IMG/VR virus record: IMGVR_UViG_2548876962_000007
DNA: 8,082 nucleotides
Direction: 5' to 3' (one strand)
DNA from: a virus
Lineage: Duplodnaviria; Heunggongvirae; Uroviricota; Caudoviricetes
The position numbers and the translations under genes were made by a program. Within the stretch, counting starts at the first letter, position 1. Every line of letters starts with the position of its first letter. Positions 2,390-7,444 of this stretch are shown in pieces. The notes below the pieces were generated by a model. The model did no database searches. It had not been told where the DNA came from and was given only the letters and a program-made list of their open reading frames with translations.

Positions 2390-3094
2390 ATGTCCTCTAA
2401 TTTTGAACGTTCTCAGCAGACCAAAGTCATGATCTCGTCTGCACCGGTAACGGCAGAAACGCTGAGTTCTGCCAGTTTTCTTGAACTGAGCTGTACGATT
2501 AAAGAGGTTCAGTTTACCGCCGGGCAGAAACAGGATATTGATGTCACCACGCTGTGTTCTGTTGAGCAGGAAAATATTAATGGTCTTGGTGCCGCGTCAG
2601 AGATTTCCATGTCAGGCAACTTTTATCTGAATGCTGCCCAGAACGCGTTGCGCAGTGCCTATGACAATGACACCACGTATGGCTTTAAAGTTATTTTTCC
2701 GTCAGGCAACGGATTTACCTTTATGGCAGAGGTGCGTCAGCATACCTGGTCTGCAGGAACCAATGGAGTTGTGGCTGCAACGTTTTCCCTGCGCCTGAAA
2801 GGTAAACCTGTACTGACGACAGATCCACTGAAAGTGAAGGTCGATTTAAACAGCACGCTGCAGGTTTCTGCCGGAGCGAAACTCGAAATGGTGGTTGAGG
2901 CTGCCGGTGGTGTGCCGCCTTATTCTTATGTCTGGAAGAAAGGTGGTTCTCCTGTTTCCGGACAGACGGCGGCAACGTTCAGTAAGGCATCAGCAGCATC
3001 CGGTGATGCCGGTGCGTATACCTGCGAGATTTCTGATTCAGCAAGCCCGGTTAGCAAGGTGACCTCCACTTCCTGCACTGTTACCGTCAGTTAA
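2390..3094 (+). CDS. Major tail (tube) protein, lambda gpV-like, with a C-terminal Ig-like domain
   Basis: 234 aa. Strong RBS AGGAG (2379-2383) 6 nt before the ATG. The N-terminal two-thirds is tail-tube-like (...YGFKVIFPSGNGFTFMAEV... parallels the lambda gpV segment ...AYKIRFPNGTVDVFRG... as I recall it). The C-terminal roughly 90 aa (...PPYSYVWKKGG...GDAGAYTCEISDS...) has the character of an Ig-like domain. Confidence 0.85.
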   Translation: MSSNFERSQQTKVMISSAPVTAETLSSASFLELSCTIKEVQFTAGQKQDIDVTTLCSVEQENINGLGAASEISMSGNFYLNAAQNALRSAYDNDTTYGFKVIFPSGNGFTFMAEVRQHTWSAGTNGVVAATFSLRLKGKPVLTTDPLKVKVDLNSTLQVSAGAKLEMVVEAAGGVPPYSYVWKKGGSPVSGQTAATFSKASAASGDAGAYTCEISDSASPVSKVTSTSCTVTVS

Positions 3095-3480
3095 TGAGGA
3101 TAGATGTGATGACTAAAAATATCCGTAATCTGGCACTGGCAACGATGTCGGGGTTTCGCCATAAAACTGTTGATGTGCCTGAATGGGAAGGGGCAACGGT
3201 TGTATTACGGGAACCTTCTGCAGAAGCCTGGTTGCGCTGGCAGGAGATCGTTAAAGCAAAAGATGATGAGACACCGTTATCCGTTGCGGAGCGCGCCCGC
3301 CGAAATCTGGAGGCAGATGTTGAACTGTTCATTGATGTTCTGTGTGGTACCGGACTGCAACCTGTATTTTCAGAGGATGATCGTGAACAGGTGATTGCCG
3401 TGTATGGCCCGGTGCATGCGCGGCTTCTTCGGCAGTCTCTGGAACTGATCAGTGATGCCGGTGAGGTTAAAAAAAAGTAG
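3094..3480 (+). CDS. Tail assembly chaperone, lambda gpG-like (short product)
   Basis: 128-aa ORF immediately upstream of the tape measure region, ending ...GEVKKK-stop with a slippery A-run at its 3' end. The start is ambiguous: ATG 3094 overlaps the upstream stop (TAATG) but has no obvious RBS, whereas ATG 3109 has GAGGA 8 nt upstream. Confidence 0.8.
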   Translation: MRIDVMTKNIRNLALATMSGFRHKTVDVPEWEGATVVLREPSAEAWLRWQEIVKAKDDETPLSVAERARRNLEADVELFIDVLCGTGLQPVFSEDDREQVIAVYGPVHARLLRQSLELISDAGEVKKK

Positions 3481-3782
3481 CGCTTCCGGGGATGCGTTTT
3501 CTGATGATGCTGGCGCTCAGGATGGGGCGCACATTGTCAGAGTTACGCCGGGAAATGTCAGCATCAGAAATCATGATGTGGGCAGAATTTGACAGGTTCA
3601 GCCCGCTGGGGGACGAGCGGGCTGATATCCGGGCTGCCCAGATAGTTTCTGCGGTTTACGGTGCGCAGGGTGTCAAAGTCCCACTGAATGATGCGCTTCT
3701 TCAGTGGGAGCATGATTCAGAAGAAAATAAATGCGATGATCCATTTATTGGATTAGAGGTTGCTCTAATGTCTTCACTATAA
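3094..3782 (+). CDS. Tail assembly chaperone frameshift fusion product, lambda gpGT-like (-1 frameshift at 3471-3477)
   Basis: The downstream ORF (track 3492-3782) is in the -1 frame relative to the chaperone ORF, has no RBS of its own, and its frame opens exactly at the slippery site. The arrangement and position immediately before the tape measure gene match the conserved G/GT chaperone pair of long-tailed phages. Predicted fusion is about 229 aa. Confidence 0.7.
3471..3477 (+). promoter_or_regulatory. Programmed -1 ribosomal frameshift slippery heptamer A AAA AAG (G/GT type)
   Basis: The last two codons of the chaperone ORF are AAA AAG (3472-3477), preceded by A at 3471, i.e. the X XXY YYZ heptamer A AAA AAG. 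The -1 frame has a stop at 3468-3470 and is then open from 3471 through to 3782. A -1 slip here therefore reads ...KK then V-A-L-P-G-M-R-F-L... into the 3492-3782 ORF. Confidence 0.7.
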
Positions 3783-3840
3783 GATAATTTTTTAATCGTT
3801 TTGAAATTGAATGCTTAACTCAAAGTCAGGAGGATTAATC

Positions 3841-4182
3841 ATGAGAAAATCAGTGGTGACATTAGCTTGTTTGTTTTTTATTAGTGCATGTAAACCATCA
3901 GATAATTATGTTATTTCTTTAGGGGAAAACTTAGTTAAAGATAAGCTTATTGATCCTGATAGTGCAAAATTTAATTCTTTTTTTCATAAGTCAGGTGATT
4001 TATATGGTTATGTTTGTGGGGATGTTAATTCAAAAAACACGTTTGGTGGATATACAGGGAAAAAGCCATATTTTGTTTATTTGGAAGTTGTGGATGGAAA
4101 AGTTAAGAGTCATGGGACTGTAACAATTGTTAATGATCATGATCCAAGCAGTATGGAAAAATATAAGTTGTTTTGCCAATAA
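3841..4182 (+). CDS. Predicted lipoprotein of unknown function (moron, about 113 aa) inserted between the chaperone and tape measure genes
   Basis: Strong RBS AGGAGG (3828-3833) 7 nt before ATG 3841; the track's ATG 3811 has no RBS. N-terminus MRKSVVTLACLFFISAC-KPSD is a positively charged n-region, hydrophobic core and lipobox I-S-A-C. GC content is about 30% by my hand count, far below the flanking structural genes. A terminator follows directly. I do not recognise a known family. Confidence 0.75.
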   Translation: MRKSVVTLACLFFISACKPSDNYVISLGENLVKDKLIDPDSAKFNSFFHKSGDLYGYVCGDVNSKNTFGGYTGKKPYFVYLEVVDGKVKSHGTVTIVNDHDPSSMEKYKLFCQ

Positions 4183-4231: not shown

Positions 4232-7200
4232 ATGGCGACATTACGTGAACTGATTATTAAAATATCGGCAAACTCCCGGTCATTCCAGTCAGAGATCTCC
4301 CGGGCTTCGCGTTTGGGGCAGGATTACTACCGCACCATGCAGAACGGAGGCCGGCAGTCCGCTGCGGCATCCCGTGAAATGCGGCGTGCACTGGCAGAAG
4401 TGACGGATCAGATAAATACAGCTAAATCTTCGGCACTGAATATGGCGGGGGCATTTGCCGGAGCTTTTGCTACCGGTCATCTTATTTCTCTCGCCGATGA
4501 GTGGAATTCAGTAAATGCCCGTCTGAAGCAGGCCTCACAGTCCAGTGATGATTTTCAGGCATCACAGCGTGAATTAATGGCGATCAGCCAGAGAACGGGG
4601 ACGGCGTTTTCTGATAACGCCAGCCTTTTTGCCCGTTCTGCAGCTTCCATGCGGGAGTATGGTTACAGTTCTGAGGAGGTACTGAAAGTCACCGAGGCGA
4701 TCTCCACGGGCCTGAAATTATCCGGTGCCAGTACAGCAGAAGCCAGTTCGGTGATCACGCAGTTCAGTCAGGCTCTGGCGCAGGGAGTGCTGCGTGGTGA
4801 AGAGTTTAACTCGGTGAATGAGAACGGCGATCGTGTTATTCGTGCGCTGGCTGCGGGAATGGGAGTTGCCCGTAAGGATCTGAAGGCCATGGCGGATAAC
4901 GGAAAACTGACCGCCGATAAGGTTGTTCCTGCACTGATTAGTCAGCTTGGGGCATTACGTGATGAATATGCGGCAATGCCTGATACGGTTTCATCCTCTG
5001 CAACCAAAGTTGAAAACGCCTTTATGGCCTGGGTTGGTGGTGCGAACGAGGCAAGCGGAGTGACGAAGACGCTCTCCGGTGTGCTGAATGGTATTGCAGG
5101 CAATATTGACACCGTGGCAACCGCTGCCGGTGCTCTGGTTGCCGTCGGGGTAGCCCGATATTTTGGCAATATGGCGTCTTCTGCTGGTTCTGCAACTGCC
5201 GGGCTAATCACTGCGGCCAGAAACGAAGTGGCTCTTGCGGAAGCGCAGCTCCGGGGGACGCAGATAGCAACCGCCAGGGCGCGTGCGGCAGTTTATCGTG
5301 CGCAACAGGCGGTTGCTGCTGCTCGCGGTACCGAAAGGCAGGCAGCCGCAGAATCGAAACTGGCTGCTGCCCAGGCGTCACTTACCCGTAATATTGCGGC
5401 CAGAACAGCAGCACAGACAACGCTGAATACTGTCACGTCAGTGGGAAGTCGTCTGTTAAGTGGAGCACTGGGACTGGTTGGTGGGGTGCCGGGGCTTGTC
5501 ATGCTGGGGGCCGCGGCCAGGTACACGATGTATCAGAATCAGGAGCAGGCCAGAGAATCTGCACGCCAGTATGCCGCAACAATCGACGAAATTCGCCAGA
5601 AAACGTCGGCAATGTCACTTCCTGAAGCGGCAGATAATGAAGAAAAGACGCGACAGGCTCTGGAGGAGCAGAATCGCCTGATTGGTGAGCAGGAAGGAAA
5701 GATTCGTGGACTGAAAAATCAGATTGCAGATTATCAACGCTGGCTTGATGAAAGTCCGCAGAGTGGTTCGGGTGCTGAAATCATCCTTAAAGGGCTTGCC
5801 GAAGCAACAAATCAACTGGCAGTTGAACAATCCCGTCTCACTCAAATGCAGGGCAAAGCGCAATCCATTCAGGATGTGCTTGCCGGGCTGGAGGAGCGCC
5901 GGGTGGCGTTGATCCGTCAACAGGCAGCGGAACAAAACAAAGCGTATCAGTCCCTGTTGATCATGAATGGGCAGCATACCGAGTTTAATCGCCTTCTCGG
6001 GCTCGGTAATGAATTACTTCAGCAGCGACAGGGGCTGGTGAATGTACCATTACGGCTGCCACAGGCAACCCTGGATGATAAACAGCAGACCGCGCTGAAT
6101 AACAGCGAGCGCGAACTGGCTCTGTCCCGCCTGAAGGGGGAAGCCCGTGAGCGTGCCCGCCTGGGTTATGCTGCGGATGATCTCGGCTTTGTGGGAGAGG
6201 CGTATCAGACAGCCAGACAGAATTATATCAATAACTCACTGGATGCCTGGCGAAATAACCAGGCAAATAAACCCAAAGCGCATAAAAAGACCGAAGCGGA
6301 AAAAACAGAAGATATTTATAAACGGCTGATTAAACAGCAAAAAGAACAGATAGCACTGGCAGGGCAGAATACTGAACTGGCTAAGATGAAATATCAGGTC
6401 AGTCAGGGCGAATTATCAACCCTGTCAGAAGCGCAGAAAAAAACGCTTTTACAGAATGCAGCACTCATCGACCAGAAAAAGATTCGTGAGCAGCTTGCCG
6501 CGTATGAAAGCAGTCTGGCGGACAGTAATGCCAGTGCCCGGGCATCTGACGACGCGCAGTTGCTGGGATATGGTGAAGGCTCACGGATGCGTGAACGACT
6601 CCAGGAAATGTGGAGTATCCGGCATGAGTTTGAGCAGAAAAATAACGAGCTGCTGAGACAGTATCAGGCCGGAGAAATTGAAGAAGCCCTGTGGAAACAG
6701 GAAAAATCGCTGAATGAAAAATATCTGGAAGAGCGTCTCAGCGATCAGCAGGATTATTATGCAAAGGCTGATGCTTTACGCAGTGACTGGAATGCCGGCC
6801 TCCAGGAGGGACTGACGAACTGGGCAGACAGTGCCACCGATTATGCTTCGCAGGCGGCAGATGCTGTCGTTTCCACTATGGACGGGCTGGTATCAAATAT
6901 TTCCGATGCACTGGCCGGAAATGTTGTGGACTGGAGAAACTGGGGGAGTTCAATTCTCCAGGAAGTTTCAAAAATTCTGATGAACGCTGCCATCGTTAAC
7001 GGGCTGAAGTCACTTTCCAAAAGCATGTCCGGTGCCGGAGGATGGCTTGGTACGGTCGGCGACTGGCTTTCCGGTGCAGTGGCAAACGCAAAAGGTGGTG
7101 TTTACACATCGGCAAATCTGAGTGCTTACAGTAACACTATTGTGGATACACCGACGTATTTTGCTTTTGCGAAAGGTGCCGGGCTGATGGGCGAGGCCGG

Positions 7201-7444
7201 GCCTGAAGCTATCATGCCACTGACACGGGCAGCGGACGGCTCTCTTGGGGTCAGAGCCATTGGCAATGTGAATGGTGGCGGGGGATTTGTTTATTCTCCC
7301 GTGTATCACATCAGTATTCAGAATAAAGGGAGCAATGGCGAGATAGATACGCAGTCAGCCAGGGGGCTGGTGGAACTGATCGACAGCAGGGTTGTGTCAA
7401 TTATGCAGTCATCACGTCGGGACGGAGGATTATGCAGTGCCTGA
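4232..7444 (+). CDS. Tail tape measure protein (lambda gpH-like C-terminal region)
   Basis: 1070-aa uninterrupted ORF directly after the chaperone pair. It has an Ala/Gln/Arg/Glu-rich, coiled-coil-like central region and two hydrophobic segments (about 5080-5170 and 5450-5530). The C-terminal region (...AIMPLTRAADGSLGVRAIGNVNGGGGF...) resembles the C-terminal part of lambda gpH as I recall it. Confidence 0.92.
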   Translation: MATLRELIIKISANSRSFQSEISRASRLGQDYYRTMQNGGRQSAAASREMRRALAEVTDQINTAKSSALNMAGAFAGAFATGHLISLADEWNSVNARLKQASQSSDDFQASQRELMAISQRTGTAFSDNASLFARSAASMREYGYSSEEVLKVTEAISTGLKLSGASTAEASSVITQFSQALAQGVLRGEEFNSVNENGDRVIRALAAGMGVARKDLKAMADNGKLTADKVVPALISQLGALRDEYAAMPDTVSSSATKVENAFMAWVGGANEASGVTKTLSGVLNGIAGNIDTVATAAGALVAVGVARYFGNMASSAGSATAGLITAARNEVALAEAQLRGTQIATARARAAVYRAQQAVAAARGTERQAAAESKLAAAQASLTRNIAARTAAQTTLNTVTSVGSRLLSGALGLVGGVPGLVMLGAAARYTMYQNQEQARESARQYAATIDEIRQKTSAMSLPEAADNEEKTRQALEEQNRLIGEQEGKIRGLKNQIADYQRWLDESPQSGSGAEIILKGLAEATNQLAVEQSRLTQMQGKAQSIQDVLAGLEERRVALIRQQAAEQNKAYQSLLIMNGQHTEFNRLLGLGNELLQQRQGLVNVPLRLPQATLDDKQQTALNNSERELALSRLKGEARERARLGYAADDLGFVGEAYQTARQNYINNSLDAWRNNQANKPKAHKKTEAEKTEDIYKRLIKQQKEQIALAGQNTELAKMKYQVSQGELSTLSEAQKKTLLQNAALIDQKKIREQLAAYESSLADSNASARASDDAQLLGYGEGSRMRERLQEMWSIRHEFEQKNNELLRQYQAGEIEEALWKQEKSLNEKYLEERLSDQQDYYAKADALRSDWNAGLQEGLTNWADSATDYASQAADAVVSTMDGLVSNISDALAGNVVDWRNWGSSILQEVSKILMNAAIVNGLKSLSKSMSGAGGWLGTVGDWLSGAVANAKGGVYTSANLSAYSNTIVDTPTYFAFAKGAGLMGEAGPEAIMPLTRAADGSLGVRAIGNVNGGGGFVYSPVYHISIQNKGSNGEIDTQSARGLVELIDSRVVSIMQSSRRDGGLCSA

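Follow-up and report, generated by a model that had tools for sequence, protein, structure and literature searches.

Near the middle of an E. coli prophage tail module, two short overlapping genes on the plus strand raise the question of what the second one encodes. Public annotation treats it as a small protein in its own right; the sequence at the overlap suggests instead that it forms the C-terminal half of a fusion, produced when ribosomes slip back by one base at the end of the first gene. We examined this locus in a window of 8,082 nucleotides, by which we mean the whole stretch of DNA analysed and to which all coordinates refer. The window is the head–tail module of an HK97-like E. coli prophage. 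Its genes run major tail protein, G, T, a moron, tape measure protein, M and L, an arrangement that matches the V-G-T-H-M-L order of the tail genes in phage lambda. Directly 5′ of G lies the major tail protein gene (2390–3094, plus strand; PHROG 158, E=6e-108), whose product has a C-terminal Ig-like domain and matches the Pfam families Ig_2/Ig_3 as well as tail tube families. T and the tape measure gene (4232–7444, plus strand) are separated by a moron gene of 342 nt; the tape measure gene was recognized by PF06120, PF20155 and PF09718, is labelled 'phage tail tape measure protein' in RefSeq and is followed by gpM-like and gpL-like genes. An NCBIfam scan of the G, T and moron proteins gave zero matches, as did a PADLOC scan of the moron protein.

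The upstream gene of the pair encodes a G-like tail assembly chaperone of 123 amino acids (3109–3480, plus strand), and its reading frame is the zero frame in what follows. Its product matched PF06222 (Phage_TAC_1) with E=7e-58 and 194 bits against a cut-off of 25, and a Pfam scan of the G part at E≤0.01 returned no family besides this one. The mechanical ORF starts at 3094, but translation likely begins at ATG 3109: the PF06222 match begins at the residue encoded there, the RefSeq CDS WP_024246320.1 has coordinates identical to 3109–3480, and an SD, GAGGA, is found 5′ of 3109 (−6.1 kcal/mol), with none for 3094.

At its 3′ end, G carries the slippery heptamer A AAA AAG (3471–3477, plus strand), read from the sequence as X XXY YYZ in the zero frame. 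The codons here are GTT (3466), AAA (3469), AAA (3472) and AAG (3475), followed by TAG (3478–3480). AAA 3472–3474 is the P-site codon of the heptamer and AAG 3475–3477 its A-site codon; together they are the final two sense codons of G, and the zero-frame stop TAG that ends the gene stands directly 3′ on the same strand. In the −1 frame, a TAA at 3468–3470 (plus strand) lies immediately 5′ of the heptamer and shuts the frame upstream, so that only a shift at the heptamer would be productive. From 3471 the −1 frame is open, reading AAA AAA GTA GCG CTT CCG GGG up to ATG 3492 and continuing until TAA 3780–3782. The two ORFs overlap by 7 nt, a space filled exactly by the heptamer, with the second ORF in the −1 frame. 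An A8 run (3469–3476, plus strand) encloses the heptamer and is a possible minor substrate for slippage by RNA polymerase. An earlier note on this DNA had located A AAA AAG in the last two codons of the upstream ORF, the −1 frame stop at 3468–3470 with an open frame from 3471, and a stand-alone 96-amino-acid ORF at 3492–3782; the heptamer was borne out at 3471–3477 and all of these coordinates were right.

Past the shift, the −1 frame codes for a T domain (3477–3782, plus strand) of 101 amino acids, VALPGMRFLMMLALRMGRT...SSL, and then reaches the TAA. This product matched PF06223 (Phage_tail_T, the lambda gpT family) with E=5e-18 and 65.7 bits against a cut-off of 25.9. G and T together matched PHROG 14766 end to end, G covering positions 1–121 and T positions 123–220 of a 224-position profile that was made from proteins annotated as already fused. 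The predicted GT fusion likewise has 224 amino acids, the T part being its C-terminal half, and VKKKVALPGMRFLMMLALRMGRTLSE is the predicted stretch that spans the junction. By translation the junction reads EVKKK|VALPGMR; the earlier note had placed it correctly but written EVKK/VALPGMR, with two Lys where there are three. Its identification of a G-like/T-like tail chaperone pair with a conserved frameshift finds support in PF06222, PF06223, PHROG 14766 and synteny.

We then looked at how this arrangement is kept among homologues. A profile of 17 diverse G homologues led to 47 loci in separate genomes of Enterobacterales and Orbaceae, including Enterobacter, Serratia, Pectobacterium, Brenneria, Morganella, Proteus, Providencia, Yersinia, Pantoea and Orbus, with protein identities to the window of 42–69%. 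In the majority of the 47, G ends with an in-frame A AAA AAG and a −1 ORF of 100–132 codons comes next. We aligned 34 non-identical sequences over 126 columns without gaps, using the T motif LALRxGR as anchor. Of these, 22 had A AAA AAG, in frame and aligned with the heptamer of the window, and the other 12 had G GAA AAG (the HK97 type), A GAA AAG or A/G GCA AAG. A zero-frame AAG with an A before it was present in every one of the 34; it fell in identical columns in 32 and one codon (3 nt) upstream in two, and in 24 a stop codon (TAA or TAG) came directly after it. Where G extends 8–10 codons beyond the site, the distance from the heptamer to LALRxGR is unchanged. Codon choice is AAA AAG, never AAG AAA, across homologues down to 42% identity, and among close relatives in IMG/VR the A8-G sequence is identical in 80 of 80. 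Aligning related G/GT pairs, as the earlier note had advised, therefore found the slip site kept in position and frame across the 34 homologues.

Coding in the −1 frame is conserved from the same point. Amino-acid conservation in this frame starts at the slip site, with V-x-x-P-G-x-x-F-L-M kept across the family. Over the interval from the slip site to the first conserved Met, entropy at −1 codon positions 1, 2 and 3 was 0.80, 0.79 and 1.35, respectively (34 homologues). The excess at third positions, together with the conserved peptide, marks the −1 frame as coding sequence from the slip site on. Anatomy, homology and the conservation of both the site and the −1 coding beyond it are all direct observations here, and on these sequences a GT fusion beginning at the slip site is strongly indicated.

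The locus has well-described relatives. HK97 gp13, the analogue of G, is 63% identical to the G of the window, and by tblastn HK97 aligned with the predicted GT at 61.6% identity over 100% of its length, in two pieces and two frames. HK97 gp14 is a joined CDS in GenBank, 'translated due to a -1 frameshift', and the homologue in Burkholderia phage Bcep176 is likewise annotated as a joined fusion. HK97 and the window share their gene order, with a slot for a moron after T and ahead of the tape measure gene, and the position of the slip relative to the T motif, whereas the moron genes themselves are unrelated. The heptamers also differ: HK97 has the near-canonical G GAA AAG, with G running five codons past it, and the window has the canonical A AAA AAG and then TAG. 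Significant matches to PF06222 and then PF06223, in that order across the frameshift, place the pair of the window in the HK97 gp13/gp14 family.

Members of this family have been assayed for frameshifting. Antonov et al. (2013) tested two members of a 'Phage_TAC' cluster, likened to an HK97 protein, with a GST-MBP reporter in E. coli (PMC3711429). An insert with ...GCC AGA AAA AAG TAG... gave 7% ± 0.79 frameshifting in E. coli (PMC3711429 Table S2), and one with GCG GGA AAG CCG TAA gave 6% (PMC3711429). We found the 7% insert to be 100% identical to Stx-converting phages and O157 prophages. In these lambdoid phages (for example BP-4795 and 2851), G is 65% identical to the G of the window and A AAA AAG followed by TAG occupies an equal position, but the A run is 6 nt long (AGA AAA AAG) compared with 8 in the window, the downstream 45 nt differ, and the codon aligned with ATG 3492 is ATT. 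The mechanism, the family and the heptamer at the matching position have thus already been described and tested in relatives.

Phage lambda is a more distant point of comparison. Its G/GT system was described by Levin, Hendrix and Casjens (1993) and by Xu, Hendrix and Duda (2004, 2013, 2014), as cited in PMC5009743; according to the same review, the G:GT ratio is roughly 30:1 and GT is functional in tail assembly. In lambda, G/GT bind the tape measure protein. Lambda and the window are alike in mechanism class and genomic slot (V-G-T-H). BLASTP was not significant for the G of the window against lambda G (E=4.6) or between the T parts (E=0.21), and by sequence the G of the window appears to lie outside the lambda gpG family, with just the T part sharing a Pfam family with lambda. 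Homology of the T parts is supported by this Pfam profile and by a shared LA(L)RxMGR motif that keeps its register. In lambda the heptamer is G GGA AAG with GTG (Val) as the next codon, compared with A AAA AAG in the window, where the first −1 residue is also Val; in both, MGR occupies positions +16 to +18 counted from the slip. Despite the non-significant BLASTP results, the initial Val and the placement of MGR point to a site positionally homologous to that of lambda. The locus also agrees with lambda-type G/GT pairs as set out by Xu et al. (2004) in its location, the −1 overlap, the in-register heptamer and the conserved slip position.

Taking these lines together, we consider it very probable that ribosomes undergo programmed −1 frameshifting at this locus, in the manner of lambda G/GT and HK97 gp13/gp14. 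The majority would read ...GTT AAA AAA AAG and halt at TAG 3478, releasing G. On a minority, the tRNA-Lys on AAA 3472–3474 (P site) and the one on AAG 3475–3477 (A site) would both move back one base onto AAA AAA 3471–3476; the single E. coli tRNA-Lys pairs better with AAA than with AAG, with which its pairing is weak. GUA 3477–3479 would be read next, and translation would stay in the −1 frame until 3782 to yield GT, with the T domain fused to a full-length G. The likely products are G, of 13.9 kDa, and a few percent of GT, of 25.2 kDa. On the model of lambda, the tape measure protein would be coated by G together with the G portion of GT while the T part would recruit the major tail protein, and a fixed low GT:G ratio would be what tail assembly needs.

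Public annotation matches a different reading, in which T is made solely as a stand-alone protein from ATG 3492 or 3504, perhaps by termination–reinitiation after the G stop, and the heptamer is incidental. The G stop is 12–24 nt upstream of these ATGs and so near enough for coupling. RefSeq takes the Met codon at 3504 as the start. All 34 homologues keep this codon, and 12 nt 5′ of it stands a weak SD-like GGGGA that scores −5.7 kcal/mol, near the values of the real G and H starts. GGGGA, however, is just the coding sequence for Pro-Gly and is not conserved as an SD, and ATG 3492 has no SD (−1.0 kcal/mol) and is matched by ATG in only 13 of 34 homologues, with ACN in 18 and GTA in three. An exclusively stand-alone T also sits poorly with −1 conservation and third-position wobble that span the interval from the slip site to Met 3504, with a heptamer-to-T-motif distance that holds even where G reads on past the site, with the fusions annotated for HK97 and Bcep176, and with the fusion product obtained by reporter assay in two family members (PMC3711429). 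We regard it as highly improbable. The claim of the earlier note that the second product is a fusion is thus strongly indicated, by conservation and by the HK97 join, but not its exclusivity: judging from the sequence around Met 3504, some additional stand-alone T may be initiated there. It is scarcely credible, in turn, that the heptamer is no more than an A-rich Lys-Lys-Lys C-terminus that arose by chance and has no recoding function. Lys-rich C-termini are common, and AAAAAAG is no commoner in the window than in shuffled sequence (3 copies on both strands against 1.81 expected, with at least 3 in 49 of 200 shuffles); by frequency alone the motif is not significant. Its placement is non-random: the copy at 3471–3477 is the sole one on the plus strand, lies in the register of the upstream ORF and within a 7-nt overlap, and is conserved. 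Against a chance origin, position, frame and synonymous codon choice are all conserved down to 42% identity, and the downstream ORF is a T domain without a conserved start of its own.

The same GT could in principle arise at the level of transcription, if RNA polymerase added one A at the A8 run (3469–3476) and the message were then translated normally. A transcript with one extra A encodes exactly the same fusion (EVKKK-VALPG...), and because ribosomal and transcriptional slippage yield an identical protein, mass spectrometry is unable to separate the two mechanisms. Efficient slippage by bacterial RNA polymerase occurs at 9 A/T (PMC5009743), one more than the run has, A8 is kept in all 80 close relatives, and A9 occurs in some homologues (L130 and L126). 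Programmed transcriptional slippage, as in Thermus dnaX and IS elements, goes with at least 9 A/T and a conserved run length, whereas the run is 8 here and varies from 0 to 9 in the family. Among the 34 homologues, the number of A before the G is 7 in 15, 8 in six, 6 in one, 3–4 in ten and 0 in two, the last two groups making up 12 homologues with 0–4 A that include HK97 with GGAAAAG. What the family keeps is an in-frame heptamer or A AAG rather than a run length, and a homopolymer would need no reading-frame register, yet the register is invariant. Given this variation in length, the conserved element is the frame-registered A AAG and not the homopolymer, and its retention in variants without a long A run fits slippage by tRNA-Lys, not by polymerase. 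The homologue tested by reporter has just 6 A, too few for polymerase slippage, and still reached 7% (PMC3711429). With a heptamer locked in frame, many members at 7 A or fewer and several at 3–4, ribosomal slippage emerges as the selected mechanism, and we hold slippage by RNA polymerase to be a very unlikely main source of GT. The A8 run may add a little of it, giving the same protein.

Ribosomal frameshifting at such sites can be raised by flanking elements, and the usual spacer from a heptamer to a stimulatory structure is 5–9 nt. The earlier note had proposed folding 3478–3560. This did return a stable fold, with an MFE of −33.3 kcal/mol (z=−2.43; 5 of 200 shuffles as good), and with it a local hairpin at 3494–3548 (plus strand) built from the stems 3499–3509/3532–3542 and 3513–3518/3525–3530, but the core of the hairpin starts 16–21 nt 3′ of the heptamer and the structure is not conserved. 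RNAalifold on the 34 homologues found no consensus structure downstream of the slip site. When the structure of the window was imposed on the alignment, 57% of cells were paired and compensatory pairs were no more frequent than in slid controls; the short inner GC helix, which falls on the conserved LALR/GR codons, was alone in reaching 80% paired. Individual folding of 12 homologues gave z<−3 for three (L090, L093 and L099) and z>−1.3 for eight. The absence of a consensus, the 57% pairing and the strong folds in only 3 of 12 led us to reject 3494–3548 as a family-wide stimulator. The hairpin is probably not a general stimulator, and it is possible that it is a feature of a sub-lineage. In its long form it is shared only with a few relatives, the three just named.

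Upstream of the heptamer, the sole SD-like element is GAGG at 3463–3466, 4 nt 5′ of the site. In homologues, the positions aligned with it hold ordinary Asp/Glu codons and show no conserved SD, and we rejected it as a dnaX-like stimulatory SD on account of its wrong spacing and its lack of conservation. In dnaX, the stimulators lie ~10 nt (SD-like) and ~6 nt (stem-loop) from the shift site, and frameshifting reaches about 50%. The dnaX cassette combines the heptamer A AAA AAG and a reliance on the single E. coli tRNA-Lys (PMC5009743) with an SD-like stimulator 5′ of the shift site and a stem-loop 3′ of it (PMC3711429). The earlier note had likened the window to dnaX. This likeness stands for the heptamer, which is identical, and for the reliance on tRNA-Lys that the two have in common; it does not extend to the stimulators, as the window lacks both an SD ~10 nt 5′ and a conserved, properly spaced stem-loop ~5–9 nt 3′. 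The two also differ in outcome, the shifted product being the longer one in the window and the shorter one in dnaX.

In keeping with the lack of a conserved dnaX-like stimulator, a low, lambda-like efficiency is to be expected rather than one of about 50%. We infer both efficiency and function at the window locus by analogy with its relatives; low-level shifting like that of lambda and HK97 is expected, and the 7% of the homologue is the best estimate available. A lineage-tuned cassette, in which the sub-lineage combines two mechanisms such that polymerase slippage at A8 and the hairpin 3494–3548 raise GT:G well above the few percent of lambda or the Stx-phage homologue, seems unlikely to us.

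Returning to the ribosomal frameshift, its product is missing from current gene annotation. In RefSeq, and in each of the 11 closely matching phage records that we inspected, G is listed with a truncated, stand-alone T starting at 3504 or 3492 and not with the 224-amino-acid GT. A search of public annotation for a joined CDS found none in close relatives; joins occur only in the more distant HK97 and Bcep176. With the fusion missed by annotation, what would be a real second product of this E. coli prophage family is absent from protein databases. The new point is limited to this annotation correction, a joined CDS missing for the prophage lineage; the finding opens no new question and adds one more clean example of a G/GT frameshift. 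Across Enterobacterales, the G/GT frameshift stays in place while its heptamer drifts between A AAA AAG, G GAA AAG and G GCA AAG, and the 34-sequence alignment is accordingly a natural series of shift-site variants that could serve in measuring single-tRNA versus tandem slippage.

The G/T region, queried as 3094–3782, matched the chromosome of E. coli 377323_2f at 100% identity and a number of phages at 96–98%, among them phi467 and Evi (97–98%). Upstream of this region on the 377323_2f chromosome, annotation marks portal and protease as frameshifted pseudogenes. That copy of the prophage is thus possibly defective, which would make the slip site a relic in the strain. The prophage family itself is very common in E. 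coli, being present in 901 of 5426 complete genomes.

In the stretch between T (window 3477-3782), the -1 frame domain of the tail assembly chaperone, and the tape measure gene (4232-7444), the window carries a low-GC insert with a predicted lipoprotein gene (3811-4182; likely start, ATG 3841). The GC content of this insert is 0.29-0.30, versus ~0.52 in its flanks, and its gene has a strong SD (-10.3 kcal/mol) and encodes a 113-aa predicted lipoprotein, MRKSVVTLACLFFISAC, with the lipobox ISAC. The product matches PHROG 2320, a family of unknown function; searches of Pfam, NCBIfam and PADLOC with it returned zero matches. The gene is missing from close relatives, among them vB_EcoM-606R7 and Evi, and the similarity of relatives of this type to the window ends 57-72 nt short of the end of T. 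In HK97, the moron gp15 sits in the same slot. The lipoprotein possibly serves in lysogenic conversion or in superinfection exclusion.

A few homologous loci, from Symbiopectobacterium, Pectobacterium and Serratia, have unusually stable hairpins 3' of the slip site (L090 1864-1946, L093 1864-1946 and L099 1867-1949; z of -3.4, -5.8 and -3.8, respectively), and most of the remaining homologues have no unusually stable hairpin at this position. These hairpins and that of the window (3494-3548) have the same codons at their centre, those for LALR/GR of the conserved T motif LALRxGR. Such structures could modulate the shift in particular lineages, or could simply result from what the sequence encodes.

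Several homologous loci have broken or joined G/T frames, G being the upstream chaperone gene. In a locus from Candidatus Symbiopectobacterium endolongispinus (L126, 1512-2160), G and T lie in a single frame via an A9 run, reading ..AEIAKKKVTQPGMQFLM..; G is interrupted upstream. The frames are also broken in L104, which has an A6 run, and in L095. All of these look like decaying prophages, or like cases in which the assembly has an indel in the homopolymer or close to it.

Among database variants of the window's G protein (3109-3480), some leave the A run in a different frame. Variants P0001 (54 members), P0003 and P0004 continue in the +1 frame after the run, as though it were A7; P0002 (EVKK-VALPGMRF...) is a genomic G-T fusion, as though the run were A6. 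The source of all four is automated assemblies of sequencing runs, and they may reflect errors in sequencing the homopolymer or genuine variants that arose by replication slippage.

The window's G/T stretch has a 100% identical counterpart in the host genome of E. coli 377323_2f (L002, NZ_CP039404.1). There, RefSeq annotates the portal and prohead protease genes of this prophage (L002 1-826), which lie upstream of where the window begins, as pseudogenes with frameshifts, so this strain may carry a defective prophage. The major tail protein gene (window 2390-3094) encodes an in-frame C-terminal Ig-like domain (Pfam Ig_2/Ig_3, residues ~154-233), which is why RefSeq calls the whole product 'immunoglobulin domain-containing protein' and not major tail protein.
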